The notes under the pieces were generated by a model that worked only from the letters and a program-made list of their open reading frames with translations, made no database searches and was not told the origin of the DNA. Below are positions 20,918 to 59,042 of a stretch of DNA of 64,000 bases, one piece after another. The first letter of the stretch is position 1, and every line of letters begins with the position of its first letter. Location: assembly GCA_035694465.1 (NCBI GenBank), contig DASSFI010000080.1:70249-134248 (forward strand). Direction: 5' to 3'. The stretch is from Pyrinomonadaceae bacterium. Its GTDB lineage: Bacteria > Acidobacteriota > Blastocatellia > Pyrinomonadales > Pyrinomonadaceae. Made by a program: the position numbers and the translations under genes.

Positions 20918-21060
20918 TGCTGGGGCTCGATCCTTCCGAGAACAGGAGTCGTCTAACGAAAGTTGTGGATTGGTTTGGCGCGCCAGGTATGGTGCCAACA
21001 TTGTTTGGCACGAGGGTAAATATAGCGGTTACAGTGGGTTGGCGTCAAGTCATTAAGGGA

Positions 21061-43650: not shown

Positions 43651-44696
43651 GCGCGCTCCTGTCGATCAAAGATCTGAAAGTGCATTTTGATCTGGGCGGT
43701 GGTGGACCACTAGACAAGTTGTTCAATGCCAACTCGGTCAAACGTGTGGTGAAGGCCGTTGACGGAGTTTCGCTCGATATTCTTGAAAAAGAAACTCTCG
43801 GACTCGTCGGTGAATCGGGTTGTGGGAAGTCGACTTTGGGCCGCGCTATCTTGCGTCTCACTGAACCGACCGCAGGCCAGGTGCTTTATCGCGACCGCGA
43901 TCTCGCACACTTGTCGCAAAGACAGTTACGCGAACACCGCCGTCATCTTCAGATCATCTTTCAGGATCCTTATGCGTCGCTCAATCCGCGCATGACAGTC
44001 GGTCAGATTGTTGGCGAACCGCTTCAGACTTATGGGCTGGCGCGTGGAAGAGAAGCTGAGCAACGCGTACAGGAATTACTCGAGACAGTTGGTCTGAGTA
44101 AACGATTTATCAAACGATACCCGCACGAGTTTTCGGGGGGTCAACGACAACGCATCGGCATCGCGCGAGCACTCGCAGTCGATCCTGACTTCATCGTTGC
44201 CGACGAACCGATTTCAGCATTGGACGTCTCCATCCAGGCTCAGATCATGAACCTGCTCGAGAAACTGCGTCGAGAAAAGAACCTCACGTATCTTTTCATC
44301 TCACACGATCTGCGCGCCATCAGACACGTTTCAGATCGCGTCGCGGTGATGTATCTCGGCAAGCTCGTCGAAATCGCTGATGCCAAAACGATTTACGATG
44401 AGCCGTTGATGCCTTACACCAAAGCGCTCATTTCGGCGGTACCCGTTCCCGATCCTCAGGTAGAAGCGTCCAGACAGCGTATAATGCTGGAGGGCGACGT
44501 GCCTTCGCCGATCAATCCTCCGTCCGGTTGCCGGTTTCACACACGATGCCCCTACGCGATCGACGCATGCAAGGAGGTGGTTCCTCAGTTAGTTGAGATC
44601 AAGCCCGCGCATTTTGCAGCTTGTATCAGAATCAGCCCGGCGCAGCCTCATATCGAGGGCGTCGCTCCCGGCGCCGCACCCGGATTGCCACAATAA
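43647..44696 (+). CDS. Opp/Dpp-type ABC ATPase (OppF/DppF-like)
   Basis: The ATG at 43647 overlaps the previous TGA (ATGA). [29 protein letters not shown]. The 161-codon upstream extension in the track is Arg-rich and looks non-coding. Confidence 0.9.
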
Positions 44697-44715
44697 AGCA
44701 CAAAGTCACAAAGAA

Positions 44716-44732
44716 ATCTGTGTAATCTGTGG
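44716..44732. repeat. Family A single arm preceded by Family B-like units
   Basis: cacaataaagcacaaagtcacaaagaa, then atctgtgtaatctgtgg, directly after the oppF-like stop. Confidence 0.65.
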
Positions 44733-44861
44733 TTTGAAAGCCTCCGGTTATTAATCGTTTAGCACTAGAGTGAACTCCCTCGTGTGCGGATGAAGGTAGT
44801 GCAGATTCCCGTGGCATTCCCATAAGTTGTTTCATGCCACGCACTTGAAGCCCAGACACGC

Positions 44862-46553
44862 ATGGTTAATAACTCCCCCATTGCCCTGAGACCTCAGGAA
44901 CATCGCGAAGACGCCCCGCCTTCCTGGCCAGAAGTTCAGGATTCGCTGGCGGAGTCTTCGGCGCTGGCCTTGTTACTTGTTGACGGACACCAGCCTCCGG
45001 CGGTGGTGGTGTCGAACAACAACTCGATCTGCCAGACCTTTCAGAGTTCCCCTGAACATGCAGGGCTATGCGACCCGTATTGCGGGGCCGCTCATGCAAG
45101 AGCCGTCAAAGCCGGCGAAGTGGTCGAGTACAGGTGTCACGCCGGACTTTCGTGTTTCGCGAAGCCGGTGCAACTGGCGGGCAAGCGGAGTTTGGCGGTT
45201 ATCGGCGGCCGCGCTTTTGTGAAGAGTTCGGATTATCAGAACTTGATGGAACGGTTTCGGACTGGTGATTTACAAGAACTGGCTAAGGAGAATGTGTTTG
45301 GAAACATTCTTTTCTCCGAACCACAACGGCTGGGGGAATTGGCGGAACGAGTCGATCGAGCCGCGCACCGGCTAAAGAGTGCGTCGTCGAATGGAACCGG
45401 TTTGAATCAGGCGCCGCCGAGTGAACCGAGTAAGTTGCCGGTGAAAGCATTGCCAGAGCCGGTTGTTAAGGATGAGTCACACCAGGATCTCGAACTTGAA
45501 GTGCAACGCTTGCGACGTGAGTTGGAGCATCGCTCGCGGTTTTCCGATTCATTACAGCATTTTCTCGAGCGCATAAGCTGCGCCGATCCGGTTAAGACTT
45601 ACAACTCGATCATTGCGAGTTCAAAGGAACTGCTGCAATCGGAACGCGCTTCGTTGATGGTGTGGAATGAAACTGAAAACAAGCTCGTGCTTAAAGCGGC
45701 GGCAGGATTGTCGACGACGCCGGAGTCGATTTCACCGGTACGCGTAGGCGAAGGGATTTCGGGAGAAGTGATCGATACGGGCAAAGCGGTAATGGTCAAG
45801 GATCTGCGCATGGCAGGCCGTACACCGGCGCCTGCTGAGCGCAAGTACAAGACAAACTCATTTATCAGTTATCCGATCATCATAGGCGGCCGCAAGGTTG
45901 GCGTATTGAACGTGACAGACAAGTCAGGCGGTGGCAGTTACGACGAAGTCGATCTCTCGTTGCTTGAAATTATTGGACCACAAGTCGCACTTGCACTCGA
46001 GCGTGCCGAATGGCAGGAACGTGCGACTGAGTTTCAACTCATGTCGATCACTGATTCGCTGACTGCGCTGCCGAATCGTCGTTATCTCGAAGAGCGTCTG
46101 GCAGAAGAACTCAATCGATCGAGGCGTTACGACTACCCGATGAGCTTTCTGATGATCGATATCGACGACTTCAAGGCCTACAACGATAAGAATGGGCATC
46201 AGGCAGGCGATCTCGCATTACAGATTGCGGCGCACTGTTTGAAAGGCGCGTTGCGCGCCGTTGACGTGGCGTCGCGGTATGGTGGCGAAGAGTTCTGCAT
46301 TCTGCTGCCGCAAACGGGAATAACTGAAGCCGGCGCGATCGCGGATCGCATCAGGCATCGCGTTTCGACGACGCATTTTCCACACGGAAAATCGCAGCCG
46401 CTCGGAAGAGTGACGATCAGTGTTGGGGTGTCGACGTTTATGAAGAATGTCGATTCGCCTGAAAACATCATCGCCGCTGCTGACCGGGCGCTGTATCAGG
46501 CGAAGAGCATGGGGAAAGATCGGGTTGAGTTTTACGGAGAAGGATCTGCGTAA
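44862..46553 (+). CDS. Diguanylate cyclase with PocR-like sensor, coiled coil, GAF and GGDEF domains
   Basis: N-terminal Cys-rich region with YRCHAGLSCFAKPV (PocR signature), a GAF region, and a GGDEF domain with canonical GGEEF and RAVD I-site. Confidence 0.85.
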   Translation: MVNNSPIALRPQEHREDAPPSWPEVQDSLAESSALALLLVDGHQPPAVVVSNNNSICQTFQSSPEHAGLCDPYCGAAHARAVKAGEVVEYRCHAGLSCFAKPVQLAGKRSLAVIGGRAFVKSSDYQNLMERFRTGDLQELAKENVFGNILFSEPQRLGELAERVDRAAHRLKSASSNGTGLNQAPPSEPSKLPVKALPEPVVKDESHQDLELEVQRLRRELEHRSRFSDSLQHFLERISCADPVKTYNSIIASSKELLQSERASLMVWNETENKLVLKAAAGLSTTPESISPVRVGEGISGEVIDTGKAVMVKDLRMAGRTPAPAERKYKTNSFISYPIIIGGRKVGVLNVTDKSGGGSYDEVDLSLLEIIGPQVALALERAEWQERATEFQLMSITDSLTALPNRRYLEERLAEELNRSRRYDYPMSFLMIDIDDFKAYNDKNGHQAGDLALQIAAHCLKGALRAVDVASRYGGEEFCILLPQTGITEAGAIADRIRHRVSTTHFPHGKSQPLGRVTISVGVSTFMKNVDSPENIIAAADRALYQAKSMGKDRVEFYGEGSA

Positions 46554-46562
46554 TCTGTGGAT
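46544..46562. repeat. Family A single arm spanning the GGDEF gene stop
   Basis: atctgcgtaatctgtggat. The intergenic gap to the next ATG is only 17 nt. Confidence 0.7.
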
Positions 46563-46570
46563 GGATTTAG

Positions 46571-48832
46571 ATGAGTAGTCGGAATGAAAATTTCCGCCGC
46601 GTTCTCGGGCGAGTGGTGCAGCAGGACTTTGTCGGTCGTGCTGCCGAACTCAATCGGATCATGGCGCACGCCGAACCTGCCAGGGCAGGGCGTGGGCTGC
46701 TATTGCTCATGGAACCTTCGGCCGGTGTCTCCGAACTTCTGCGTCAGGCTTACGATCGAATTTTCAACCGTCGTTCCGAAGTCATACCAATCTATTTCGC
46801 GATCACGCGCAACGAGACGACGGCAGTTAGCGCTGCCATCGAATTTCTCAACACCTTTCTTCAGCAATACATCGCCTATCGCCGCGATGAGCCGGTCGTC
46901 TCTGATGCACCGTTAACATTGCACGACCTCGTCGAACTCGCGCCGGCCGCGGATCTCGAATGGATCGAACAACTCGTCGAATCGTATAACCGTCTGCGCT
47001 TCAGTAACGACGACAAAGCGCTCGTGCGTTTCTGTCTCGGTGCGCCGCAAAGAATCCCGGCGGTGCGCGGGCGCGCTTTCGTCATGCTCGACGGCTCGCA
47101 ACTCGCGGAGTATCTCAACGGCGCGGTGGTGCTGGGCACTGAAATACTCAGAGTGTTTGCGCGTGGAGGCTTTTCCTTTGTACTCGCCGGACTGCGTCGC
47201 CAGATACTCGAAGCCGCACACGACGCAAATTACAACTTCGAACTGCTCGACATTCTGCGTCTCGAACAACTCGACGCCGCGGAAGCAGCGAAACTCGTCG
47301 AACACGTCGCGCGACGCCAGCAAGTAGCAACCAGCGAGGCGGCGCGCGATCTGATCGTGCAACAGTTTGCCGGTAGTCCATTCTTCATCAACATCTATCT
47401 TCAGGCAGCGCGCGAGAAACACGCACCGTTAAACTCGTATCTCGATTGCGAACGACTCTACGTCGACGAGCTTTTCGGCGGTCACATTCATCGTCACTTT
47501 GCGGATCTGCTTGAAGAGATTTCGCCTCGTCTCGATACGCGCCACCTCTTGATCCGCCTGCTCTGGGAAGCTGTAGCAGGCGAGGATCCGATTTCGTCGT
47601 TTGAGCTTTGGCGTAAACGTCTGCACATGGCCGCTACCGAGCTCGAAGATCTTTTGCATCGATTGCATGTGCAGGAATTTGTTAACTGGGACGAAACCAC
47701 GATCGAAGCCGGCAGCGGTTCCCAAGCGTGGAAAGACTATTTGAAGATTCGTTATCGCCTCGACGTGTTGAGTGAACCGCGTGCCTTGGTCGTTGCAGAC
47801 ATGCTGGCCGACTCGCTCAAACGCGCACCACACACGATGGCGCGTCATTACAAGCAGATCGCAAACGCAGGTCTGCGTGATTTGATCTCCAGATTCAATT
47901 GCCAGCAAGTACCGGCCGTGCTTTTCGATTACAAGACTTTCAGCGAGAAGTATAAAGGCGCCGAGAGTGAAACCATTGTTTCTGGTCTCGCAGCCGAGAC
48001 TGACTCCTTGAAGCTTCCGCAAACCATCCACCTCGCGACCTGCTCGGCATTTATCAGTGACATGCGACAGCTCTGCGAAGACGAGCACTGCCTCGTCGCG
48101 CACACGTTTGAAGGAGCGACGTACACAGACGCGCAGGAAGTGATCTGGCTGGCTGCTGACATTGAGTCGAAGCTTGAAGTCGATGTTGCTGTTGCTCGCG
48201 CCTGGTGCGACAGGTTTGAAAGTATGGCCGAACGGCTCGGTTTCAGCCGTTACCAGATCTGGTTGATTTCCAACGAAGGATTTTCGGCAGACGCGAGTAA
48301 CCTCTTGGAGCGGCGCAAGGCGCTCGGTTCGAGTCGCCAGCAACTGGAACTGCTCGCATCGCGTGTGCGCGATAGCGTACATAGCGCAGTGGTCGAAACT
48401 GAAGGTCCCGATGAATTCATGATGGTGGTGCCGATGGGTGAGGACAACGAACTCATTGCTGCGAGCACTGCTGAGCAGATTGCGAAGCGACTAACTTTTC
48501 GTCCGGAGGCCATTAATCAGATAAAAACAGCCATTGTTGAGGCTTGTATAAACGCTTCCGAACATAGTTTCAGCCCGGATCGAAAAATTTATCAACGTTT
48601 TCGCGTCGAAAGTGATAGATTAGTCATCACTATTTCGAGTCGCGGCATCGTGCCGACCAATCTTAACGGCACGAAAAGCGGAGCAGAAGCCAAAGAGGTG
48701 GCGGAAGAGAGACGCGGTTGGGGACTTAAACTCATCCGGACACTCATGGATGAGGTCGAGTTTGAACGGGTCGACGACGGCACCAGTTTGCGCATGACGA
48801 AATATCTGCGGCCTCAAAAAGAGAGCGCGTAG
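46571..48832 (+). CDS. Large signalling protein: degenerate STAND/archaeal-type ATPase-like N-terminus, DUF234-like middle, C-terminal RsbW/SpoIIAB-like HATPase_c domain
   Basis: N-terminus FVGRAAELNRI...LLLLMEPSAGVSELL matches the FVGR-E-L...GxxGxGKS layout but lacks the GK. C-terminus has the N-box EACINASEHS and G2-like RRGWGLKLIRTLMDEV. Confidence 0.7.
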   Translation: MSSRNENFRRVLGRVVQQDFVGRAAELNRIMAHAEPARAGRGLLLLMEPSAGVSELLRQAYDRIFNRRSEVIPIYFAITRNETTAVSAAIEFLNTFLQQYIAYRRDEPVVSDAPLTLHDLVELAPAADLEWIEQLVESYNRLRFSNDDKALVRFCLGAPQRIPAVRGRAFVMLDGSQLAEYLNGAVVLGTEILRVFARGGFSFVLAGLRRQILEAAHDANYNFELLDILRLEQLDAAEAAKLVEHVARRQQVATSEAARDLIVQQFAGSPFFINIYLQAAREKHAPLNSYLDCERLYVDELFGGHIHRHFADLLEEISPRLDTRHLLIRLLWEAVAGEDPISSFELWRKRLHMAATELEDLLHRLHVQEFVNWDETTIEAGSGSQAWKDYLKIRYRLDVLSEPRALVVADMLADSLKRAPHTMARHYKQIANAGLRDLISRFNCQQVPAVLFDYKTFSEKYKGAESETIVSGLAAETDSLKLPQTIHLATCSAFISDMRQLCEDEHCLVAHTFEGATYTDAQEVIWLAADIESKLEVDVAVARAWCDRFESMAERLGFSRYQIWLISNEGFSADASNLLERRKALGSSRQQLELLASRVRDSVHSAVVETEGPDEFMMVVPMGEDNELIAASTAEQIAKRLTFRPEAINQIKTAIVEACINASEHSFSPDRKIYQRFRVESDRLVITISSRGIVPTNLNGTKSGAEAKEVAEERRGWGLKLIRTLMDEVEFERVDDGTSLRMTKYLRPQKESA

Positions 48833-48864
48833 AGATCAAGCGGGTCGAGTAACAGAAAAATCAA

Positions 48865-48891
48865 TTTGCGTTTTTAGTGCCTTTTCGTGGC
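48865..48891. repeat. Family B single arm (variant)
   Basis: tttgcgtttttagtgccttttcgtggc, upstream of and overlapping the STAS ORF start. Confidence 0.55.
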
Positions 48892-49303
48892 TACATTCGA
48901 AGCAGGAGGGAGCTATCGAGTGGATACACCAAGTGGAGGGCTAGTACGCTCGCACTGTGTTGGCACCACCGCTGTTGTTTACGCTAGCGATTACCTTAAC
49001 AAGCTAACCGGTGAAAAGATTGAGCGTGAGTGTCGCCGGCAACTCAGTTGCGGTTGCCGTGCACTAGTCATCGACTTTAGCGACACCAAACTAGTTAACA
49101 GCATAGGGATCTCAATTCTCCTCGGCATCATCGACGTTGCTGAAAAAAGCGGCGCCCGGATTGCCTTTTCGGAAGTCAACAATCAAACAGTCCAGTTGTT
49201 CGAAATGCTTGGACTGACCCGCCATGTTGTACTCGCGAAGGACGAACGAGAAGCACTGATCAATCTTTCGCGTTTTGAGGCTACTACTCCCGTAGTCCAT
49301 TGA
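48887..49303 (+). CDS. STAS-domain protein (anti-sigma-factor antagonist type)
   Basis: VIDFSDTKLVNSIGISILLG matches the SpoIIAA/RsbV phospho-serine region (Ser in NSIG). An alternative GTG start at 48920 lies 9 nt after AGGAGGG. The first codons overlap a Family B repeat arm. Confidence 0.75.
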   Translation: MATFEAGGSYRVDTPSGGLVRSHCVGTTAVVYASDYLNKLTGEKIERECRRQLSCGCRALVIDFSDTKLVNSIGISILLGIIDVAEKSGARIAFSEVNNQTVQLFEMLGLTRHVVLAKDEREALINLSRFEATTPVVH

Positions 49304-49307
49304 ACAC

Positions 49308-50576
49308 ATGGAGCCTTCAACCCAGAAACTCATCCACACATTTGGAGCCCTCGCCGACTTAGGACAGGAAATTGCCGGCACCGGCGATTTCAACGAGATG
49401 GTGCGGACGTCAATGCACCTCCTGCTCGGCACGCTCGCGCTGCGACGTGGCGCGGTGGTCGAATGCAATGGACCTGGACCACTGCGTTGTGTATCGATCT
49501 GGGGACTCGGCGATCAGTTCTTCAGCGGCGTCGATATTGATGAACCCGAGATGAAGGCCTTTCTCGCCGGCGAGATCTCCGATTCACTCGTGCAGAATAC
49601 TTCGAGCTCGAATCCGTTTCTCGGTCGTTATCGCGAAGCGCTGGCGGGCGAGGGAATCGAACTCGTGCTGCCGATGATCGTGCGCGGTGAAGTTACAGGG
49701 TTAGTGCTGCTTGGCGGGAAGGCGAGTGGTGAGGAATTTTCGAACGACGATTTCGACACCATTCGCGCGATGGTTCGTCATATCGGCGTCGGCATTCACA
49801 CGCATCGACTGCTCGAACAAGTGGCCCAACGCGCCGAAGAGAATCGCAGACTGTACGATGAACTGCGCGCGATCTATCGCGATACCGTGCAGGCTTTCGC
49901 GGCGGCGATCGATATCAAAGACAAGTACACCCAGGGTCACTCGGAACGCGTCGGCAGGTACAGCGAGATCATCGCGCGTGAAATGGGTTGGAGTGAAGAA
50001 GAAGTCGAAGGAATCCAGATCGCAGGTTACCTGCACGACATCGGAAAACTGATTGTCGACCGCGACATCATCAACGCGCCTTATCACATCGATGCGAAGA
50101 GTTCGAGTGAGTTGAATCGGCATCCAGCCGCCGGTTACGAGATTCTTTCGCCGATCAGGCATCCTTACGCGGACATTCCGTTGATGGCGAAATACCATCA
50201 CGAGCGACTCGACGGTCGTGGCTATCCGGACGGGTTAACGGACGAGCAGATTCCACTCGGCGCGAAGATCGTGTCGCTCGCGGATTCATTCGATGCAATG
50301 ACAACCGATCGGCCGTACCGGCGTCGTCGATCGTTCGAAGATGTTGTACGCGATCTGCGGGAGAGTAGTGGTAAGCAATTCGACGGCAAGGTCGTCGCCG
50401 CGTTCGCGAGAGCGATCCTGAAAGAGGTCAAGGGGGAAACAAAAGAACGACGGGTAACGAAGATGCTCGGCAAAGGCTATCTCGAAGGCGAACAAGTCGC
50501 CACCCTACTCACTGATCTCATCACCGATCTCGAAAACGAGGTCACCCGAAAAAGCGCAACCGCCCAAACTACTTAA
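49308..50576 (+). CDS. GAF plus HD-GYP c-di-GMP phosphodiesterase-type protein
   Basis: Starts 4 nt after the STAS stop. HDIGKLIVDRDI ... HHERLDGRGYPDGL motifs follow an N-terminal GAF-like domain. Confidence 0.85.
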   Translation: MEPSTQKLIHTFGALADLGQEIAGTGDFNEMVRTSMHLLLGTLALRRGAVVECNGPGPLRCVSIWGLGDQFFSGVDIDEPEMKAFLAGEISDSLVQNTSSSNPFLGRYREALAGEGIELVLPMIVRGEVTGLVLLGGKASGEEFSNDDFDTIRAMVRHIGVGIHTHRLLEQVAQRAEENRRLYDELRAIYRDTVQAFAAAIDIKDKYTQGHSERVGRYSEIIAREMGWSEEEVEGIQIAGYLHDIGKLIVDRDIINAPYHIDAKSSSELNRHPAAGYEILSPIRHPYADIPLMAKYHHERLDGRGYPDGLTDEQIPLGAKIVSLADSFDAMTTDRPYRRRRSFEDVVRDLRESSGKQFDGKVVAAFARAILKEVKGETKERRVTKMLGKGYLEGEQVATLLTDLITDLENEVTRKSATAQTT

Positions 50577-50582
50577 CCCACA

Positions 50583-50609
50583 TTCTGTGTTTTTGTGCCT
50601 TACTGTGGC
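50583..50609. repeat. Family B single arm (variant) between convergent operons
   Basis: ttctgtgtttttgtgccttactgtggc. Contains the stop of the FHA gene. Confidence 0.55.
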
Positions 50610-51478
50610 TGGATCCGGATCGTGAAATTGCAGATCGCAATCCTCTGATCCGCCGTGACCTCGGTCGGAGCTTCCCGCGTTAATTCTTTCCCATTAACAA
50701 GCGTCGGATTGCGGCCCTTCGCCACCACCCAGTAGCGCCCCTCGTTGTCTCGCGAGAGCACTGCATGCACGCGACTGACTTCCGGATCACCCTTGATCGG
50801 CAAATCCACCGAGATACTTCGTGAACCTCGCCCGATCGTTATCTCATTCTTCATGATCGGCACCACCGCTTCGCGCACGCCGTTCTGCCAGATCTCAACC
50901 TGAAAAAGCGGCGCCGCTTTCGGTCGCACTACTGTCTGCTCGCTTTCACTCACATCCGAAGCACGCTCGACCACCGTGTCGTTGAGACTAAACGCCGGCG
51001 CTGTGCGTGAGGGATCCACACGCGGCGTCACCATCGTGTGTCCGCTTTCGGTTTCATCCCAAACTGCCTGCACCCGAAACTCGCCTTTGTTGAGCGTTCC
51101 GTCAACACGCAGCTCAACTGCGAACGATTTGACTGCGAGTTGAGTTTGCCCGCTCAATTCGCGCGCCCGCTCCGACAAAACATGAAAGAGACCCTGCTCG
51201 AGTCCACGTCGTTTATCACCCTGCCATTCCTTGTCGTCGTCGGCGCTCAGGTAAACAATGTACTCGCGCGGAATGTAAGTTGGGCCACCTGGCGGCGTGA
51301 ACATCTCGCGCTGCATCGCCGCTTCGACTTCGCGCGCAATCTTCACCAAGAACTCTTCCCAAACGCGCCGGGGTTTAGCGTGCTCGTCAGCGGCTTCGAG
51401 TAGATCCTCGCCGGTTTCACCATCTATCCATTTTCTAATCGATTCCAGCAGACCCAAGCTATCGCTCCTTCTCCGCAC
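50600..51478 (-). CDS. FhaA-like protein: DUF3662-type N-terminal domain plus C-terminal FHA domain
   Basis: C-terminus ITIGRG...VSRVHAVL...NPTLVNG is a canonical FHA pattern. The N-terminal half resembles the FhaA N-domain. Confidence 0.8.
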   Translation of the reverse strand: MRRRSDSLGLLESIRKWIDGETGEDLLEAADEHAKPRRVWEEFLVKIAREVEAAMQREMFTPPGGPTYIPREYIVYLSADDDKEWQGDKRRGLEQGLFHVLSERARELSGQTQLAVKSFAVELRVDGTLNKGEFRVQAVWDETESGHTMVTPRVDPSRTAPAFSLNDTVVERASDVSESEQTVVRPKAAPLFQVEIWQNGVREAVVPIMKNEITIGRGSRSISVDLPIKGDPEVSRVHAVLSRDNEGRYWVVAKGRNPTLVNGKELTREAPTEVTADQRIAICNFTIRIQPQ

Positions 51479-51483
51479 TCAAT

Positions 51484-53037
51484 CTAATCAAACTTAACGT
51501 ATCGCTTGTTGACCCAGCCACGGTCCGACGAATAGGGATCGGTCTTCGGTCTGCCGTGTTGCACCACCTGCACTTCATACCAGTTGCTATTGCTATCAGC
51601 GCTCAAGACTTTCACTTTTGAACCCGACTCAGCCAAGCCAATCGGCAAATTCGAGCTGTTCGCCACTGGCCGCAGATTGACGTCGGTAGTGGTAACGCCT
51701 TCACGACCAATTATCACCGGCTCGACATTTTGAGCAATCGGAGCAAGCGGATTCCAGCGCGTCGTTACATACTTGTGGGTCGCGAGCAGCATGCCGGAGA
51801 ACGCGAGGATCAACCCAACGGCAACGAGAGCACGACGCTTTTTACTGGCCGGCAAGACTGATTCAACCGTCGACATCTTCTGCGGCCGTCGTTCACTTTG
51901 CGCAGCCTCCATTTCCTGACGTGCACGCATTTCCATCTGCCGTTGCACTTCGCGATTGATGGGAACCACGATACGCGGACGTTTGCCCGTATCGAGATCG
52001 GCAGGCTCAATCCGCGGTACGTCGAAGTGGGGTCGAGGCGGCGCCGCTTCAGTAAACTCCTCTTCAGGTTCTACCGAAAGATCCTCGCTCGGCTTGCGTC
52101 TCATTTCCTGGACCACGGCGGCGGGAACCATCTGGAGCGGCTTCGTGGCCGGCAGACCCGCGTCGGCGATGTCGTCCCAGAATTCTTCAACCGTTTGATA
52201 ACGTGCTTCAGGACGATTCTGCGTCGCTTTCTCCAGCACGCGCACGACTGACTTCGCCCAGGGAGTGTTATTGATTTGCGCCGGTAATTCAGTGATCGCA
52301 TGCTGCGCAAAGCGACGCGGTGATTCTCCAGCCAGGAGTGTGTAAGTCGTTTTTGCGAGTGAATAGATATCAGCGGCCGGTGACAGGTGATCGTGACGTA
52401 TTCGCAAGCCGCTCGTATCGAGCTGACCGGTCTGCATCAACGGATTATGTTCCGGTGCTGAATAGATGTTGGTTCCCACTCGCGTGATCGCGCCTTCAGT
52501 GGCATCGATGCGAGCGACGCCGAAGTCGGCAATCTTGACGAGTTCTTTGTCGGCAGTCAGCAACAGGTTTTGCGGTTTGATATCTCGATGAATGACGCCA
52601 CATTTGTGCGCGTGCGCGAGACCGGAACAGACCTGTTCGAGATAGAACAAGGCTCGCTGAAGGGATAGCGGCCGCGTCTTGGTGAGTGCAAAAAGATCGC
52701 CGCCGGGAAGATACTCGAGCACGATGTAGTGAAAAGTGGTGCCCGTGAGATCGATGGCAGTGCCGTGTCCGAGACGATTTATTACATTTGGATGACGGAC
52801 GCGATCGAGCGCCACTGCTTCATTTTGAAAATTTGTGACGAGAGTTCGCTCCAGTTCCGCGTCTGGTTCGTCCTGGAGATGTAGATTTAGAGCCTTGATA
52901 ACGATTGTGCGCGGAGCACCTTCGACAGCAGCATTATCATTCGCGACGTAGATCTCGGCATAGCTGCCACGTCCGAGGCATTCGACGATATCGTAGCGAC
53001 CGTCGAGTCTGCTGTTTTGAAGTCTCAGTTCAGCCAT
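51484..53037 (-). CDS. Transmembrane Ser/Thr protein kinase with extracytoplasmic SH3b-like domain
   Basis: Hanks kinase motifs GRGSYAEIY, VIKAL, HRDIKPQNLL, DFG and APE. One TM helix. C-terminus VNLRPVANSS...NWYEVQV...GWVNKRYV is SH3_3-like. Start moved to ATG 53037 because the upstream codons are repeat-encoded. Confidence 0.85.
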   Translation of the reverse strand: MAELRLQNSRLDGRYDIVECLGRGSYAEIYVANDNAAVEGAPRTIVIKALNLHLQDEPDAELERTLVTNFQNEAVALDRVRHPNVINRLGHGTAIDLTGTTFHYIVLEYLPGGDLFALTKTRPLSLQRALFYLEQVCSGLAHAHKCGVIHRDIKPQNLLLTADKELVKIADFGVARIDATEGAITRVGTNIYSAPEHNPLMQTGQLDTSGLRIRHDHLSPAADIYSLAKTTYTLLAGESPRRFAQHAITELPAQINNTPWAKSVVRVLEKATQNRPEARYQTVEEFWDDIADAGLPATKPLQMVPAAVVQEMRRKPSEDLSVEPEEEFTEAAPPRPHFDVPRIEPADLDTGKRPRIVVPINREVQRQMEMRARQEMEAAQSERRPQKMSTVESVLPASKKRRALVAVGLILAFSGMLLATHKYVTTRWNPLAPIAQNVEPVIIGREGVTTTDVNLRPVANSSNLPIGLAESGSKVKVLSADSNSNWYEVQVVQHGRPKTDPYSSDRGWVNKRYVKFD

Positions 53038-53044
53038 TTTTATT

Positions 53045-53070
53045 GCCACAAAAAGGCACAAAAGCACAAG
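53045..53070. repeat. Family B single arm (consensus-like)
   Basis: gccacaaaaaggcacaaaagcacaag, in the PP2C-kinase junction. Confidence 0.75.
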
Positions 53071-53089
53071 ATCGCACGCTTAGATGCAG

Positions 53090-54595
53090 TTAGGGAGCAT
53101 TGCTGTTGGTGGGAGGTTTGGTTAGCTCGTCGTAGTGGTTGAGCACCTTCCATCGATCCTTCTGCGTTTTCACACTGATCATGCTCAAGCCAAAAATCGC
53201 TTCCTTCTTAACTGTGGCGTTAGTGGGCGTAGGATTGAGATTCGACTTGGCGATGGCCGCGTCAAAAGCCTTGGTCGCCTCCTCGGTGTTTCCGGTCAGA
53301 AGATTTGCGCGACCGTAAAGATACAAAAATTCCGCATTCGGCGATTCAAGTGCATTCTGAACTCCGGCAGTCACCAATTCCTTTCCGACGTCACTCGCCA
53401 GCCACGCACGCGGATCCTGATCGACCTGGCGCCGCGCTCGCTCAAATTTCACAAAAGGCTCTTCGGGCGATGGAGTGGTAACGGGTGTTGCCGCCGGAGT
53501 CGGTTCGACCTTGGACGCGAGGAAGGGAATTCGTTCCTTGAAACGAGCGCCCGCATAAAACGCTCCGCCAATCAGTAGCAACACGAGCACTACAACAAAC
53601 GCCTTCGCCGCGCCACCACCGCTTTGTGCCGCCCCTGGTTCGGCTACGTTGAGTGGTTCGCTTGAAAGTGGTGTTACCTGAGCCGGTTCACTTGCCGGCG
53701 CAGGGAAGGCGATTCGCGAGGCCGGCAGGAACGTCGTGTCACCAAGTGCTGACCCATTGCCGGATTGTGCGGCGGCATAAGCTCGCTCTGTTTCGGGCGA
53801 GATCGTCGGTTCGAGATCGGCTGATCGCTCGTCGGCCCTGAGATGTTCGCCGACACGGATGGCGACGACGGTCAAGTTGTCTTCAGCGCCGCGATCGTAG
53901 CAACGTCGTTTGAGTTCACTGCACAGTTCGTCGAGGTTGTTGCTGACGACCATCAATTGGCGCAGTTCGTTATCAGAGACGTGACGTGTGATGCCATCCG
54001 TACAGAGCAGAAACTCCGTGCCGTCGTCGACCTCTATCGTCTTCATATCGACTTCGACGCCTTGTTCTGCGCCGAGAGCGCGACTGATCACGTTCTTGCT
54101 GGGATGATTTGCGGCCTGTTCCGGCGTCATGCGTCCGGCGCGTACTTCTTCTTCGACGATCGAGTGATCTTCAGTTTCGCGATGCAGTTGTCCGTCAGGA
54201 GTCAGCCGGTAGAGTCGCGAGTCGCCGACGTGACCGAACGTAGCGACGTTGCCCTTTAGATGAAGCGCAACAATCGTCGTCGCCATCATGGAAAACTTCG
54301 CGTGCTCCTGGGCCATCTGGTGGATCGAAGCGTTGGCGCGCTGGATCGCGAGCTCCATCAGGTCTTCAATGTCAGCGCCTTCAGTTTGATGACGAAACGC
54401 TTCATCGAGCACTTCGATCGCGGTTTGGGATGCGACTTCACCCGCTTCGGCGCCGCCAACGCCATCAGCTACCGCGAAGATTTGGCGCTCGCGGTCGTGC
54501 AAAAGGGCGTCCTCATTCAATGGTCGCCGTTCGTTCAGTCCGCGATCTGTAAGCGCTGCGGATTGGACCGCAAAGGTCCTGGTCTCTTCGCTCAT
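53090..54595 (-). CDS. PP2C-family Ser/Thr phosphatase with TM helix and extracytoplasmic helical domain
   Basis: NEDALL, FAVADGVGG and LLCTDG motifs. A TM helix (VVVLVLLLIGGAFYAGA) is followed by a helical, TPR-like tail. Confidence 0.85.
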   Translation of the reverse strand: MSEETRTFAVQSAALTDRGLNERRPLNEDALLHDRERQIFAVADGVGGAEAGEVASQTAIEVLDEAFRHQTEGADIEDLMELAIQRANASIHQMAQEHAKFSMMATTIVALHLKGNVATFGHVGDSRLYRLTPDGQLHRETEDHSIVEEEVRAGRMTPEQAANHPSKNVISRALGAEQGVEVDMKTIEVDDGTEFLLCTDGITRHVSDNELRQLMVVSNNLDELCSELKRRCYDRGAEDNLTVVAIRVGEHLRADERSADLEPTISPETERAYAAAQSGNGSALGDTTFLPASRIAFPAPASEPAQVTPLSSEPLNVAEPGAAQSGGGAAKAFVVVLVLLLIGGAFYAGARFKERIPFLASKVEPTPAATPVTTPSPEEPFVKFERARRQVDQDPRAWLASDVGKELVTAGVQNALESPNAEFLYLYGRANLLTGNTEEATKAFDAAIAKSNLNPTPTNATVKKEAIFGLSMISVKTQKDRWKVLNHYDELTKPPTNSNAP

Positions 54596-56283
54596 TGCAC
54601 AGCCTCCAGCTTAAGGGGAGAAGAACTCTTAGCCACCGGCTTTTCTATCACGACCTTGTCGCGTGCATTTCGATTTGAAAATGCCATCAGCATCCCCAGC
54701 ATTGCAAAGCTCGTAATCAGACTGAAACCACCATGGCTGACGAAAGGCAAGGTGATTCCCGTCATCGGCAAAGCTCTTAAAATACCGCCAATATTCACTA
54801 AAGCCTGAAAACCAACAAACGCTGTTAGACCTGCTGCGCACAGCTTCGTAAACATATCACGCGCCTCCAGCGAAGTGCGAACTCCAGCGACCACGAAAAT
54901 TATGATCGCCAGGATAATTACAGCACCTCCAGCGAGGCCGGTTTCTTCGGCAATTGCGGCATAAACGTAGTCAGAATCGGCAATCGGAATTACTTCGGGG
55001 AAACCCAGACCGAAACCACGCCCAGTGGTTCGACCTGATGCAATACCCCACTGCGCCTGGGCCGGTTGAAACGCGAGCTTGTCGAACCAGATATCGACGT
55101 TCACCGTCTTCTGCATTGCGGGACTCTGATCGGCAAGCTCCTTCATCTTCGGATCCTTGCTGAGTGATTCGTCATACTCTTTCTTCCACCACGAAACTTC
55201 CGGCGAAGGCGGATCGAAACCGTCGAGCCAAAGGTGGAAACGCTGCTGGATACGAGACGGAAGTGCCGCGCTGATCGGTCTCGCGACGGTCGGCAGGAGT
55301 GGAACCTTTTCCTGAATGTCGCGAGGTAGTGCGCCGACAACGAGGATTCCGATAACAATCACGACAGAACCGACAAATAACAGAAGCTGAGGCCAGCGTC
55401 GCACTGCGACGAGATAAAGCGTCGTGTAAGCACCGCTGAAGATCAGCATCTGCCCGAAATCTTTGAGGGCAAAGAACGGGATGAAAGGCATCACCGCCAT
55501 CACGAGAAGCGGCACGATGTCGCGCGCTCGCGGAATGCCCCAGTACGTTTCAGCGAGATCTTTGTAACGAGCGGTCAGAATACCGGCGAAGCCGACCAGG
55601 AATGGAATCTTCGAGGGCTCCCATGGCGTCATGTTGCCGAGTGCTTTACCGGCGCTCGAGGTGACGACCGCGATCGCGAGCGGTACGAGTGTGAACAGCA
55701 CGATGATGAAACTGTTGCGTTGCAGCCATAACAGAAAACCGTCGCGCACGCAGAACGAATAGGCAATCGCAAATGCGAGGAACGAAAAGACGGGGATCCA
55801 CGTGTAGCTCGAAGTGATTGCGTTCCAAAGCGAGTAATTCGATTCTTTCTTCGGGATCTGGTCGATGGCGATCGGTTGCGCAGGTGTGGGTGGCAATCCC
55901 ATTAGCTGCTTCTTGACCGGATCGTAGTTCTCCATGATGTAACGCGTGCGCAGTGCGTCCATCTTTTCTTCACGCGCCTGTGATTTGTTGCGAGCGTTAT
56001 ATTCCGGATCGCTATAGAGGCGATACTGGATCAACATACCGAACGAGAAGAGCAGGATGGCGGTTGTGTAGAGCACCCAGTTACCGGCGAAGCGTTTACT
56101 ACGCGAGAGCCAAAGAGCGATGAAGATCAGGGGAACGAACATCATCAGGTCGCGGACGGCGCCGATGATCGAAGTCTCATACCCACGCAACAGACCGGCG
56201 CGATGCACGGCAAAGTATCCGGCGATCTCGAGGCCGAGGATCATCAGGATGATCAGTAAATGTGATGACGCGCGATTCTTCAT
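54592..56283 (-). CDS. SEDS-family peptidoglycan polymerase (FtsW/RodA), enlarged (563 aa)
   Basis: 10 or more TM helices and C-terminal LPFVSHGGFSL motif. Its stop overlaps the PP2C start (ATGA). Confidence 0.8.
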   Translation of the reverse strand: MKNRASSHLLIILMILGLEIAGYFAVHRAGLLRGYETSIIGAVRDLMMFVPLIFIALWLSRSKRFAGNWVLYTTAILLFSFGMLIQYRLYSDPEYNARNKSQAREEKMDALRTRYIMENYDPVKKQLMGLPPTPAQPIAIDQIPKKESNYSLWNAITSSYTWIPVFSFLAFAIAYSFCVRDGFLLWLQRNSFIIVLFTLVPLAIAVVTSSAGKALGNMTPWEPSKIPFLVGFAGILTARYKDLAETYWGIPRARDIVPLLVMAVMPFIPFFALKDFGQMLIFSGAYTTLYLVAVRRWPQLLLFVGSVVIVIGILVVGALPRDIQEKVPLLPTVARPISAALPSRIQQRFHLWLDGFDPPSPEVSWWKKEYDESLSKDPKMKELADQSPAMQKTVNVDIWFDKLAFQPAQAQWGIASGRTTGRGFGLGFPEVIPIADSDYVYAAIAEETGLAGGAVIILAIIIFVVAGVRTSLEARDMFTKLCAAGLTAFVGFQALVNIGGILRALPMTGITLPFVSHGGFSLITSFAMLGMLMAFSNRNARDKVVIEKPVAKSSSPLKLEAVQ

Positions 56284-56285
56284 TT

Positions 56286-56304
56286 ATCTGTGTAATCTGT
56301 GGAT
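56286..56304. repeat. Family A single arm filling the PBP-SEDS junction
   Basis: atctgtgtaatctgtggat in a 23-nt gap. The adjacent small hairpin ggatact/agtatcc reaches into the PBP stop. Confidence 0.8.
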
Positions 56305-56306
56305 AC

Positions 56307-58142: not shown

Positions 58143-58151
58143 CCAGTTTCG

Positions 58152-59042
58152 CTACTCACTTTTACGCAATCGTACTTCCACGTCTCCGAATCCGACGACG
58201 TCGCCGTCTTCAATCAGTCGCGACTCACCGTAGGCGATGCGCCGGCCATTGATAAACGTTCCATTTGTTGAACCGGTGTCGGCGACGAGCAGTGTTCCTT
58301 CGGAAGTCATCAAGAGCGCGGCGTGTATTTTTGAAACGCTCGAGTCGTTTACGGTTAGATCGTTATCGGAAGCTCGTCCCACATTCAGCCGCCTGCCGCC
58401 CGGCTTAAAGATCAATGGGACTTCACGAGTTCCGGACGGGGTGGTGGTGCGTGCGATCACCTGAATGTCAGGCATCGTCGGCGCAGCGCCAGGAATCGGC
58501 ACGCCCGTCTTCGCGGCACGCGCCTCTTCGTCCTGCCGTCTCAGGTCTTCTTCGAATTCACCGAAGTTTGGATCAACCGAGATTCCGGTCGTGAAAATGT
58601 CGACTTCAGCTTCGACCTCGACAGGCCCGAGTGTGCGATAGCGATGGTCGTTGATGTGATCGATCGCGGCGGCCAGAACTTCGTTTTTCAGGTCGTTGAG
58701 AATTTCCGGCGGTGCTTCGGAATGAGTGCCCCACTCGACTTTGAGCACGAGATGATGTGGCGCGATTCTGCCTTTTCGACCTTCGTCTCTGACGCGCTCA
58801 TCGATCAGTCTCTTCATTCTTTCGATGAGCTTCGAGGTAGTGAGCCCGCTGCGAGGTTCGACGGTGCGGCCGAGTCTACGGTCTACAACGCTGCCCATGC
58901 CTTCGAGCACGCGCCGCAAAAGGCGTTCGGGCAAAGCTTCCTCGCGCTTCTTTTTTGCGGCTTGCTCTTCCTTGAGCTTGCCTGTCGGGTCGTCAGAGTC
59001 AGTCATGAATAGCCAATACGAGTTTTCTCGCGAGCGGTTCAT
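58152..59042 (-). CDS. FhaA-like protein: DUF3662-type N-terminal domain plus FHA domain
   Basis: C-terminus LNVGRASDNDL...VSKIHAALL...GSTNGTFINGRRI is an FHA pattern. An alternative ATG lies at 59006. Confidence 0.8.
   Translation of the reverse strand: MNRSRENSYWLFMTDSDDPTGKLKEEQAAKKKREEALPERLLRRVLEGMGSVVDRRLGRTVEPRSGLTTSKLIERMKRLIDERVRDEGRKGRIAPHHLVLKVEWGTHSEAPPEILNDLKNEVLAAAIDHINDHRYRTLGPVEVEAEVDIFTTGISVDPNFGEFEEDLRRQDEEARAAKTGVPIPGAAPTMPDIQVIARTTTPSGTREVPLIFKPGGRRLNVGRASDNDLTVNDSSVSKIHAALLMTSEGTLLVADTGSTNGTFINGRRIAYGESRLIEDGDVVGFGDVEVRLRKSE

Follow-up and report, generated by a model that had tools for sequence, protein, structure and literature searches.

A four-gene cassette joining a c-di-GMP cyclase and an HD-GYP hydrolase through a STAND-fused, RsbW-like hub protein: a probable partner switch without a sigma factor

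Introduction

The RsbW/SpoIIAB-type proteins of Bacillus are stand-alone domains of ~140-160 aa with a DxG G1 box, and they operate with a cognate sigma factor and PP2C phosphatases. STAS-type proteins also regulate diguanylate cyclases (PMC8457831; 10.1101/2024.11.25.625174). The output of HsbA is not confined to a sigma factor and includes direct binding of a cyclase (10.1101/2024.11.25.625174; PMC8457831), and the cyclase of the SiaABCD system is bound and activated by the unphosphorylated switch protein (PMC8457831). Which mycobacterial RsbW homologues are active can be predicted from whether the N, G1 and G2 motifs are present, and kinase-negative homologues exist that still act by binding (PMC7693655).

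The operon considered here lies in a 64-kb stretch of DNA from a soil acidobacterium of the Pyrinomonadaceae (the window) and places an RsbW-like protein and a STAS protein between two enzymes of c-di-GMP metabolism. The initial annotation cited HsbA acting on HsbD as precedent; this is valid, but BgrV-BgrR, SiaC-SiaD (PMC8457831) and HsbA-CfcR (10.1101/2024.11.25.625174) are precedents too. Partner-switch control of cyclases is thus already known, and what is new is the STAND-fused hub, the HD-GYP arm and the absence of a phosphatase. In the literature searched, we found no description of the four-gene set, which had been suspected to be undescribed, nor of a STAND/ATPase_2-type module fused to an RsbW-like domain. 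We argue, with a probability of roughly 0.6, that the four genes form one unit setting c-di-GMP turnover via a sigma-less, partner-switch-like circuit around the hub; the cassette would then switch both synthesis and breakdown of c-di-GMP.

The four genes

Re-derivation from the ORF list, Pfam and the translations returned the four same-strand ORFs (563, 753, 138 and 422 aa), domains and motifs as first described:

44862..46553, + strand: gene 1, PocR-GAF-GGDEF diguanylate cyclase, 563 aa (ORF, Pfam, NCBIfam, motifs)
46571..48832, + strand: gene 2, the hub protein ('bigW'), 753 aa (ORF, AF2 model, Foldseek)
48887..49303, + strand: gene 3, single-domain STAS protein, 138 aa, GTG start (ORF, Pfam STAS)
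49308..50576, + strand: gene 4, (GAF-like)-HD-GYP c-di-GMP phosphodiesterase, 422 aa (ORF, Pfam HD_5, motifs)

The cyclase matches the Pfam families PocR (2.7e-15), GAF_2 (1.7e-16) and GGDEF (1.9e-47), and NCBIfam TIGR00254 (GGDEF) at 4e-52:

44925..45284, + strand: PocR sensory domain, aa 22-141 (Pfam PF10114, 2.7e-15)
45591..46004, + strand: GAF domain, aa 244-381 (Pfam GAF_2, GAF, GAF_3)
46035..46529, + strand: GGDEF catalytic domain, aa 392-556 (Pfam, NCBIfam)

Its PocR domain is rich in cysteine (NNNSIC...LCDPYCG...RCHAGLSC) and aligns with those of distant cassettes, with a stand-alone PocR protein (L168) and with the cyclase of locus L169. The canonical GGEEF and I-site reported initially are both present in the translation, where RAVD is followed after five residues by GGEEF; of the 153 upstream genes homologous to it, 140 retain GGEEF and RxxD. 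Gene 1 is not an orthologue of SiaD, since it scores 165.6 bits against a model cut-off of 290.

The hydrolase encoded by gene 4 (Pfam HD_5, 1.8e-32) carries the motifs HDIGK and HHERLDGRGYP, and HD.GK and HHE...G.GYP are found in 121/121 homologues. As judged from their translations, both c-di-GMP enzymes keep their catalytic motifs. The N-terminal domain matches GAF families below the gathering thresholds, and in the L166 homologue Pfam does call GAF:

49392..49799, + strand: GAF-like domain, aa 29-164 (Pfam GAF_2 9e-4, GAF 2.4e-3, both below gathering)
49896..50393, + strand: HD-GYP catalytic domain, aa 197-362 (Pfam HD_5, HD)

Gene 3 (Pfam STAS, 1.1e-09) probably starts later than called, at an in-frame GTG at 48920, because this codon is preceded by AGGAGGG at 48904-48910 (a possible ribosome-binding site) and the STAS genes of relatives are called at 106-128 aa. 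The protein would then be of 127 aa. Gaps of 17, 54 and 4 nt hold for the ORFs as first called, but that between hub and STAS genes is more likely 87 nt. Similarly, the phosphorylatable serine noted in LVNSIGIS is conserved, being invariant in 148/148 cassette STAS proteins within the motif T-x-L-V-N-S-I-G-I-S-I-L-L and aligned with Ser58 of SpoIIAA, but it is probably Ser61 rather than Ser72.

Architecture of the hub protein

Pfam recognizes only HATPase_c_2 in the hub (8.3e-18, residues 631-744). By AF2 modelling (pLDDT 88, pTM 0.70) and Foldseek, it is a fusion whose parts are a P-loop module of STAND/ATPase_2 type, a domain weakly similar to restriction endonucleases and a GHKL domain of RsbW/SpoIIAB type, with a long helix as a further part of the architecture:

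46619..47770, + strand: STAND/ATPase_2-like P-loop module with a helical/winged-helix part, aa ~17-400 (Foldseek, motif tables)
47891..48385, + strand: middle alpha/beta domain, aa ~441-605 (sub-model, Foldseek, column conservation)
48410..48820, + strand: RsbW/SpoIIAB-like GHKL domain, aa 614-750 (Pfam HATPase_c_2 8.3e-18, Foldseek)

The 'giant kinase-like partner' of the initial annotation does have an RsbW-like C-terminus, but it is a STAND/ATPase_2-like NTPase module fused to such a domain, and the two enzymes are linked by this hub, not simply by a kinase-like/STAS pair.

The best structural match of the STAND module is the PAB2304 Walker ATPase (2qen; E 3.7e-8, TMt 0.63), and Apaf-1, NB-ARC and Cdc6/Orc1 are further Foldseek matches. 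Pfam AAA_16 reaches only E 0.0029 on the hub itself; some distant homologues do score above the ATPase_2 and AAA_16 cut-offs. The Walker A motif has degenerated to G52-V53-S54, its lysine having been lost in the lineage of the window's hub, and Walker B reads D174-G175. The sub-model of the middle domain has a pLDDT of 93.6, and Foldseek matches it to EndoMS (5gkj; E 0.014, prob 0.98), AF1548, MspJI and Cap4, though no match is better than E 0.001. Together with a partly conserved E-I-D/E-S-K motif, these make the domain weakly PD-(D/E)xK-like.

Conservation and co-variation of the cassette

The hub family comprises 246 clusters (50% identity) at E<1e-30, full length in most. We surveyed 169 loci, representing 12 clusters at 45% hub identity, of which 90 had enough flank to score all four genes; 85 of these 90 hold the full set. 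Upstream of the hub gene, GGDEF is encoded in 116/119 loci and PocR in 114/119; downstream, STAS is present in 140/145 and HD-GYP in 109/112. Median gaps are ~3 nt (cyclase-hub), ~70 nt (hub-STAS) and ~7 nt (STAS-HD-GYP).

These genes might not form a system at all, and could be unrelated signalling genes held together by inherited synteny, or an anti-phage module of STAND-nuclease type lying beside c-di-GMP genes. Within Blastocatellia, conservation is indeed uninformative: the whole 20-kb region, including Opp and FhaA/STPK genes, is syntenic, so that the majority of the 169 loci cannot be counted as independent and the effective sample is ~10 contexts. Moreover, STAND and nuclease-like folds are frequent in defence proteins, and Avs3 joins Cap4 among the weak Foldseek matches of the middle domain. 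However, the cassette survives where all flanking genes differ. The full set is found in at least eight unrelated genomic contexts (L082, L086/87, L088-90, L098, L111/143/148, L166, L167 and L172), with hubs there only 24-40% identical. The initial annotation stood to fall if the genes did not co-occur in relatives; they do so even in distant ones, and the recurring arrangement is not chance. In addition, the genes are tightly spaced and co-vary module by module (see below), and the locus is chromosomal, amid housekeeping genes and inherited vertically. The hub, cyclase and STAS proteins have no PADLOC match; those of the HD-GYP protein, to Cas3/Cas10 models, are weak and concern its HD domain only (best E 2.4e-5). 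The co-occurrence and unrelated-context data largely refute this reading, which we consider very improbable. The four genes thus remain joined across very distant relatives even though their neighbours differ, and are probably one signalling unit.

Incomplete cassettes are instructive about the inner organization of the unit. One locus (L168) has a stand-alone PocR protein, hub and STAS and neither enzyme, and the loci L083/84 have hub, STAS and HD-GYP and no cyclase. In L169 the hub relative has no recognized GHKL domain (HATPase_c_2 E 0.14) and in L171 its GHKL motifs have decayed; both retain the PocR-GAF-GGDEF gene and have neither STAS nor HD-GYP. Where cassettes are interrupted (L094, L117, L096, L136, L161 and L165), the break always falls between the hub and STAS genes. 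This pattern of presence and absence identifies two evolutionary pairs: the STAND module belongs with the PocR-cyclase, and STAS (plus HD-GYP) with the RsbW-like domain. The very tight spacing of the STAS and HD-GYP genes ties these two together.

Kinase or scaffold?

The C-terminal domain is a close structural match of RsbW (6m36; TMt 0.94), to which it aligns at 5e-9, and it matches the NCBIfam RsbW model at 2.2e-16, below cut-off. Both its N box (E657/N661) and its G2 box (RRGWG) are preserved, and Ser690 replaces the G1-box aspartate. That aspartate contacts adenine in the GHKL (Bergerat) fold, and its loss abolishes ATP binding in other GHKL proteins. Across the family, position 690 is S in 163/262 sequences, N in 96/262 and D in 0/262, and kinase activity is therefore not a given.

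The RsbW-like domain might accordingly neither bind ATP nor phosphorylate; the hub would then simply keep STAS, perhaps together with the enzymes, in a complex whose assembly would be set by PocR/GAF ligands, or by NTP on the STAND module in relatives with an intact Walker A. No phosphatase would be required, which suits the finding that PP2C occurs in no unrelated context, and kinase-negative RsbW homologues working through binding are known (PMC7693655). The residue aligned with Arg20 of SpoIIAB is also not conserved, being Ala/Ser. Set against such a scaffold are the near-invariance of the N-box Glu/Asn and the G2-box RRGWG down to 23% identity, which is unexpected if nucleotide binding has been lost (E657, G692 and R715 never vary among the 261 sequences without a gap; N661, G716 and G718 are kept in 258-259/262), and the invariant phospho-acceptor serine of STAS. 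The odds that the hub truly acts as a kinase, through an unusual nucleotide pocket, rather than binding STAS without phosphorylating it are about even; as an account of the whole locus, the pure scaffold is possible but doubtful.

Output of the switch

As first noted, the operon encodes no sigma factor and no RsbU-type phosphatase. A convergent cluster adjoins it:

minus strand: FhaA-like FHA, STPK, PP2C, FtsW/RodA and PBP genes

The PP2C of this cluster had been proposed as the missing phosphatase. This finds no support: only in the Blastocatellia-like clade do the two lie side by side, and the gene belongs to its own FhaA/STPK/RodA/PBP cluster.

In a canonical arrangement, the hub would sequester an alternative sigma factor whose gene lies elsewhere, to be freed by STAS, and the cyclase and HD-GYP genes would be co-transcribed simply as part of that response. 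The resemblance of the C-terminal domain to RsbW/SpoIIAB would fit, and partner-switch components are not always adjacent to their sigma factors; the neighbourhood inspected covered flanks of 5-10 kb plus the window. Nevertheless, no sigma-70-family gene occurs in the ~10 independent contexts or among the other Pfam families listed for the window, the hub modules co-vary instead with PocR-cyclase and STAS/HD-GYP, and the Arg20 position, important in SpoIIAB for sigma-F binding, is not kept. This arrangement is improbable. Since neither a sigma factor nor a PP2C accompanies the set in the unrelated contexts examined, the c-di-GMP enzymes, already suggested as targets, are the most plausible outputs.

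The sigma-less circuit that we favour can be drawn as follows, its protein interactions all derived from gene order and co-variation. The PocR/GAF sensor-cyclase would dock on the N-terminal module of the hub and convey a ligand or redox signal. This signal would alter the holding of STAS by the RsbW-like domain and probably also the phosphorylation of the invariant serine by that domain. Released or phosphorylated STAS may then bind the GAF-HD-GYP enzyme, and possibly the cyclase too, as HsbA, BgrV and SiaC bind cyclases. One input would thereby switch synthesis and hydrolysis of c-di-GMP reciprocally, the two enzymes replacing a sigma factor as output.

Comparison with known systems

HptB-HsbR-HsbA-HsbD of Pseudomonas aeruginosa and HsbA-CfcR of P. 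putida likewise have a phosphorylatable single-domain STAS protein, which is under the control of an RsbW-type kinase domain that sits in a multidomain protein. HsbR, however, has a receiver and a PP2C domain, and hence kinase and phosphatase in one protein, whereas the kinase-like domain of the window's hub is fused to a STAND NTPase and a phosphatase is absent. HsbA also acts on FlgM/RpoS anti-sigma circuits, unlike the proposed cassette, and the HptB system has neither an HD-GYP partner nor a PocR sensor and differs in the state of its G1 box.

BgrSTUWV-BgrR of Sinorhizobium meliloti uses its STAS protein, BgrV, to control a dedicated cyclase, BgrR, and the output is not a sigma factor (PMC8457831; PMC13438883). 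STAS phosphorylation is reversible there as published; the cassette has no phosphatase, its hub is fused to a STAND module and an HD-GYP arm is added. SiaABCD of P. aeruginosa is, like the cassette, a single four-gene operon with a kinase, a STAS-like switch protein and an I-site GGDEF cyclase (PMC8457831), but SiaC is DUF1987 rather than Pfam STAS, SiaA is a PP2C phosphatase, and neither a phosphodiesterase nor a STAND module is present.

Mycobacterial RsbW1/RsbW3 and UsfX, the last among the Foldseek matches of the hub, are likewise GHKL anti-sigma-like proteins and act by binding, not phosphorylating (PMC7693655). They regulate SigF. Motif decay in the hub is limited to one G1 residue, its N and G2 boxes being near-invariant. 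The N-terminal part recalls the ATPase_2 (PF01637)/PAB2304-type STAND-like Walker ATPases; distant hub relatives match ATPase_2, AAA_16 and AAA_22, and GK[ST] and DD/DE are retained in them, but in the window's hub Val53 stands where the Walker A lysine was lost and Gly175 where the second Walker B acid was. With RsbW-RsbV and SpoIIAB-SpoIIAA of Bacillus, finally, the cassette shares the fold and N/G2 motifs of the hub C-terminus and the position of the STAS serine, but its RsbW-like domain is part of a fusion of 753 aa and has Ser/Asn at the G1 box, its STAS protein reads 'N-S' where Bacillus STAS proteins have 'D-S', and it includes neither a sigma factor nor a phosphatase.

The cassette and its surroundings

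The cassette consists of four genes on one strand. A PocR-GAF-GGDEF cyclase and an HD-GYP hydrolase lie at its two ends, and between them are a protein that we call the hub and a small STAS protein.

Genes of the cassette, from ORF calls and Pfam
44862-46553, plus strand: gene 1, cyclase, 563 aa, with PocR, GAF and GGDEF domains
46571-48832, plus strand: gene 2, hub, 753 aa, with HATPase_c_2 (residues 631-744) as its only Pfam domain
48887-49303, plus strand: gene 3, STAS protein, 138 aa from a GTG start, with a STAS domain
49308-50576, plus strand: gene 4, hydrolase, 422 aa, with HD_5/HD domains and a sub-threshold GAF

The intergenic gaps are, in order, 17, 54 and 4 nt. Read from the translations, the cyclase has RAVD followed after five residues by GGEEF, the STAS protein has LVNSIGIS, and the hydrolase has HDIGK and HHERLDGRGYP. 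ORF calls, Pfam and translations recovered all of the ORFs, gaps, domains and motifs of the initial annotation, and only the start of the STAS gene has been amended. The STAS ORF contains a second in-frame GTG at 48920. Because AGGAGGG (48904-48910) precedes this codon and the STAS genes of relatives are called at 106-128 aa, the true start is probably GTG 48920 rather than the first GTG at 48887, giving a protein of 127 aa, a gap of 87 nt to the hub gene and a conserved Ser at residue 61. A scan for sigma-70 promoters and terminators gave no signal above shuffled sequences. No riboswitch, of the c-di-GMP or any other type, emerged when 44300-51000 was scanned with Rfam; the sole match was a chance snoRNA (E 0.8).

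Among genomes the best match has 96% identity; metagenome-assembled genomes of Pyrinomonadaceae (Acidobacteriota, Blastocatellia) make up the close relatives. Upstream of the cassette lie genes of an Opp/Dpp-type ABC transporter; downstream, and convergent to it, is a gene cluster, followed by a very long ORF.

Features downstream of the cassette
50600-59042, minus strand: genes for an FhaA-like FHA protein, STPK with SH3, PP2C with TPR (53090-54595), FtsW/RodA and a PBP transpeptidase
59159-63898, minus strand: very long ORF of 1580 aa at the end of the window, covered by the bulk Pfam scan

The downstream cluster resembles the actinobacterial fhaA-pstP-rodA-pbpA-pknB cluster, although the host here is an acidobacterium. 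In one syntenic relative (L001) a second FHA gene lies just past the PBP gene.

Conservation in unrelated genomic contexts

A genome scan returned 80 loci with hub identities of 52-96%, and the four genes were in order in every one. The Opp and FhaA/STPK flanks were conserved as well. As the whole region is syntenic within Blastocatellia, these loci prove little by themselves; they were set aside as evidence and more distant material was added, from a metagenome scan that started with distant hub relatives (80 loci) and from direct look-ups of distant representatives. Co-occurrence was then counted over 169 loci, each entering a count only where its contig leaves enough flank. A GGDEF gene lies immediately upstream of the hub in 116 of 119 loci (with PocR in 114 of the 119), STAS lies downstream of the hub in 140/145, and HD-GYP comes next in order in 109/112. 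The complete set of four genes is present at 85 of the 90 loci with enough flank. At 45% hub identity the loci form 12 clusters; the distant loci include complete cassettes with entirely different neighbours.

Distant loci: hub identity to the window, and flanking genes
L086/87: 25%; priA-def on one side, fmt on the other
L088-90: 24.5%; secDF, and recJ
L082: 25.5%; histidine kinase and sigma-54 activator, and PilZ/ftsY/smc
L167: 27%; secretin/TPR, and metallo-beta-lactamase
L166: 33%; TIR/TPR/sigma-54 activator, and hybrid kinase
L172: 31%; sigma-54 activator, and PIN
L111/143/148: 34%; STPK/sigma-54 activator on one side
L098: 40%; other flanks

The initial annotation had called for such a neighbourhood survey and had named a failure of the four genes to co-occur in relatives as a refutation. 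Since the cassette is kept amid unrelated neighbours, that refutation does not apply.

Several of the distant contexts, unrelated to one another, have a sigma-54 activator gene beside the cassette, often upstream of the cyclase gene and divergent from it.

NtrC-type response regulators with a sigma-54 activation domain that adjoin the cassette
L082, 1403-2767
L111, 4309-5736
L166, 3326-4780
L172, 2170-3597

A scan for TGGCAC-N5-TTGC upstream of the cyclase genes of distant loci found no convincing sigma-54 promoter. At L082 a gene for a stand-alone PilZ protein, a c-di-GMP receptor, directly follows the cassette on the opposite strand (12019-12411, minus strand).

Partners that are absent

No sigma-70-family gene was found among the listed families of the window or in any context inspected, and neither the operon nor the neighbourhoods inspected in unrelated contexts contain a PP2C phosphatase of the RsbU, RsbP or SpoIIE type. 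The initial annotation had described an operon lacking both, and on this point Pfam and the neighbourhoods agree with it. Its further suggestion, that the convergent PP2C gene supplies the missing phosphatase, is unsupported, because this gene belongs to an FhaA/STPK/RodA/PBP cluster of its own that is syntenic with the cassette only in a Blastocatellia-like clade. A role as an anti-phage defence system was also considered and rejected, since hub, cyclase and STAS have no match in PADLOC; the HD-GYP protein matched Cas3/Cas10 models only weakly, through its HD domain (best E 2.4e-5).

The hub protein

The hub belongs to a large family, with >1,400 matches in a collection of 5.8 billion proteins. 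At E<1e-3 the homologues form 1,166 clusters (50% identity), and at E<1e-30 there are 246, mostly of 710-780 aa. They are largely full length and have no dedicated annotation, the source names being only 'ATP-binding protein', 'AAA family ATPase' or 'RsbW'. In metagenome-assembled genomes of soil Pyrinomonadaceae/Blastocatellia the hub is near-universal.

AlphaFold2, given 41 diverse sequences, yielded a confident model (pLDDT 88, pTM 0.70). For the N-terminal ~400 residues Foldseek ranks PAB2304 (2qen, E 3.7e-8), a Walker-type ATPase, first among PDB structures, with further matches to Apaf-1, NB-ARC and Cdc6/Orc1. As modelled, this part of the hub is a STAND/ATPase_2-like module, with a helical/winged-helix part after the P-loop NTPase fold. 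Its nucleotide-binding motifs depart from the canonical GK[ST] and hhhhD[DE] in the window, where Walker A reads G52-V53-S54, with Val53 in place of the Lys, and Walker B reads D174-G175. The acidobacterial clade to which the window hub belongs has lost the Lys and shares the D174-G175 form of Walker B; the Lys is kept in 33 of 249 family sequences, mostly distant ones. Relatives at 23-33% identity retain both GK[ST] and a Walker B DD/DE, and match Pfam ATPase_2, AAA_16 and AAA_22; two of them (P0239 and P0272) pass the ATPase_2 gathering cut-off of 33.2 with 37.8 and 39.2 bits. The window hub itself reaches 18.6 bits against AAA_16 (E 0.0029), under the cut-off of 32.6.

Residues ~441-605 form a separate and confident fold (pLDDT 93.6). 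Because its Foldseek matches, to restriction-endonuclease-like proteins, are weak (best E 0.014) and a (D/E)xK-like motif is kept only in part, no function has been assigned to this middle domain.

A 585-aa ATPase_2-like relative of the N-terminal part (P0277; L170, 3363-6758) adjoins an AAA_35/AAA_22 protein and an STPK. There are no PocR, STAS or c-di-GMP genes at this locus, so the STAND module is also found in unrelated contexts.

The GHKL domain and its probable STAS partner

The C-terminal domain of the hub is a GHKL domain of the HATPase_c_2 type (Pfam 8.3e-18; PDB match to RsbW 5e-9), and in Foldseek it superposes on RsbW (TMt 0.94), SpoIIAB and UsfX. It falls under the NCBIfam equivalog cut-offs for RsbW and SpoIIAB. 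The N box and the G2 box (R715-G-W-G718) are intact, with E657 and R715 invariant and N661, G716 and G718 present in 258-259 of 262 sequences. The G1 box has no DxG. Position 690, which aligns with the D of RsbW 'ADEG' and SpoIIAB 'RDEG', is Ser in the window hub, and across the family (n=262) it is Ser in 163 sequences, Asn in 96 and Asp in none. In the Bergerat fold of GHKL proteins the G1-box Asp hydrogen-bonds adenine N6, and several of these proteins no longer bind ATP once it is mutated. To our knowledge, all characterized GHKL kinases have this adenine-reading Asp.

The STAS protein scores 38.4 bits against Pfam (cut-off 22.6) and lies below the NCBIfam ant_ant_sig cut-off. Ser at the position of SpoIIAA Ser58 is invariant in all 148 cassette STAS proteins and sits in a strongly conserved T-x-L-V-N-S-I-G-I-S-I-L-L. 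The residue before it is always Asn, where RsbV and SpoIIAA have Asp.

The chances that the hub would phosphorylate STAS in a nucleotide-dependent manner, or would be a pseudokinase that binds STAS and leaves it unmodified, are roughly balanced. The invariant Ser and the intact N and G2 boxes argue for phosphorylation and against mere binding. The pseudokinase reading gains from the loss of the G1 Asp throughout the family, from the lack of any phosphatase in the operon and the inspected contexts, and from the documented existence of RsbW homologues devoid of kinase activity (PMC7693655).

As Asn or Ser replaces Asp family-wide while the Mg- and phosphate-binding motifs stay, it is also conceivable, if unlikely, that the pocket has switched to a guanine nucleotide, either GTP, which is the cyclase substrate, or c-di-GMP. 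In that case hub and STAS would provide the feedback sensor of a c-di-GMP homeostat or toggle that regulates itself, with cyclase and HD-GYP physically coupled in it and the STAND module as a second, ligand- or NTP-gated input. Were this so, the hub would be a GHKL 'kinase' of non-adenine specificity, and the same second messenger would be both input and output of a partner switch.

The enzymes

GGEEF and the RxxD I-site are present in 140 of 153 cyclase homologues. Six others are fragments at contig ends with the motif cut off, and the remaining seven, of the L111/L166 clade, have AGDEF and keep RxxD (L092, L093, L111, L132, L143, L148 and L166). By co-occurrence, the STAS gene is linked to a cyclase gene whose product, having GGEEF and RxxD, is predicted to be active. 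Against the SiaD model the cyclase scores 165.6 bits, short of the cut-off of 290 for SiaD orthology, and none of the four cassette proteins reaches an NCBIfam equivalog model. The hydrolase of the window matches HD_5 (1.8e-32) and has both the HD metal-binding and the GYP motifs; HD.GK and HHE...G.GYP are found in 121/121 HD-GYP homologues.

Separate from the cassette, the window also encodes a fused phosphodiesterase/cyclase.

Fused enzyme elsewhere in the window
18395-21001, minus strand: single chain of 869 aa with HD_5/HD-GYP (aa 305-466), GAF (546-684) and GGDEF (695-850)

Modular co-variation

Several loci have only part of the cassette, and of all the results these variants tell the most. 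L168 has a stand-alone PocR protein of 233 aa with hub and STAS, and neither enzyme; L083/84 have hub, STAS and HD-GYP without the cyclase. At L169 (2769-6647) a 548-aa hub relative, in which the GHKL domain is not recognized (HATPase_c_2 E 0.14), adjoins a PocR-GAF-GGDEF gene, and STAS and HD-GYP are absent. L171 (3810-8298) is a Blastocatellia paralogue, a second hub copy with intact Walker A and decayed GHKL motifs (EACLSLSAI, RGVWR), which still has a PocR-GAF-GGDEF gene beside it but neither STAS nor HD-GYP. Insertions or rearrangement, where they split the cassette, always do so between hub and STAS, and the hubs at these loci have intact GHKL motifs. Five loci without STAS were considered as degenerate hubs, which is ruled out by their intact GHKL motifs; in close relatives, insertions separate the hub gene from the STAS gene. 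The gaps have medians of about 3 nt between cyclase and hub, 70 nt between hub and STAS, and 7 nt between STAS and HD-GYP.

Locus variants, position of the break and gene gaps all fit two tightly coupled pairs. One unites the PocR-cyclase and the STAND module, the other STAS-HD-GYP and the RsbW-like domain, and the hub fusion joins the two pairs physically. Gene coupling points to HD-GYP as a STAS partner at least as strongly as to the cyclase.

A proposed switch whose output is enzymatic

To the observed anatomy, conservation and co-variation of the cassette can be added the contacts and activities that we infer for its proteins. The reading we prefer, with a probability of about 0.6, is a partner-switch circuit without a sigma factor that has the enzymes as its output. 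The N-terminal module of the hub would communicate with the PocR/GAF sensor-cyclase. The RsbW-like domain would hold STAS and probably phosphorylate it, and the target of free or modified STAS would be the GAF-HD-GYP enzyme, possibly also the cyclase. In this way c-di-GMP synthesis and degradation would be switched together.

The cassette bears on how a specific cyclase is coordinated with a specific phosphodiesterase in 'local' c-di-GMP signalling; the partner-switch links to c-di-GMP known to us concern cyclases only. Here a single STAS/RsbW-type switch, built on a previously unannotated STAND-RsbW fusion, would govern both a synthase and an HD-GYP hydrolase. The cassette offers a compact four-protein system for studying enzyme-directed partner switching, and its natural variants, which differ in whether Walker A is kept and whether GHKL has decayed, predict the contacts that matter. 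The invariant G1-box substitution raises the question of nucleotide specificity in GHKL kinases, and the hub would exemplify the recruitment of STAND NTPases to second-messenger control rather than to defence or cell death.

Comparison with known systems

Literature searches for the architecture of the cassette found no description of it in the library searched. Cyclases under STAS-type control are known from HsbA-HsbD, BgrV-BgrR and SiaC-SiaD (PMC8457831), and HsbA-CfcR provides another (10.1101/2024.11.25.625174). STAS control of cyclases is therefore established and the concept is not new. Compared with the Hsb, Bgr and Sia systems, however, the cassette has no phosphatase, its hub has a family-wide substitution in the G1 box, and it adds a STAND-RsbW fusion as the hub, a PocR sensor, and an HD-GYP arm coupled to STAS.
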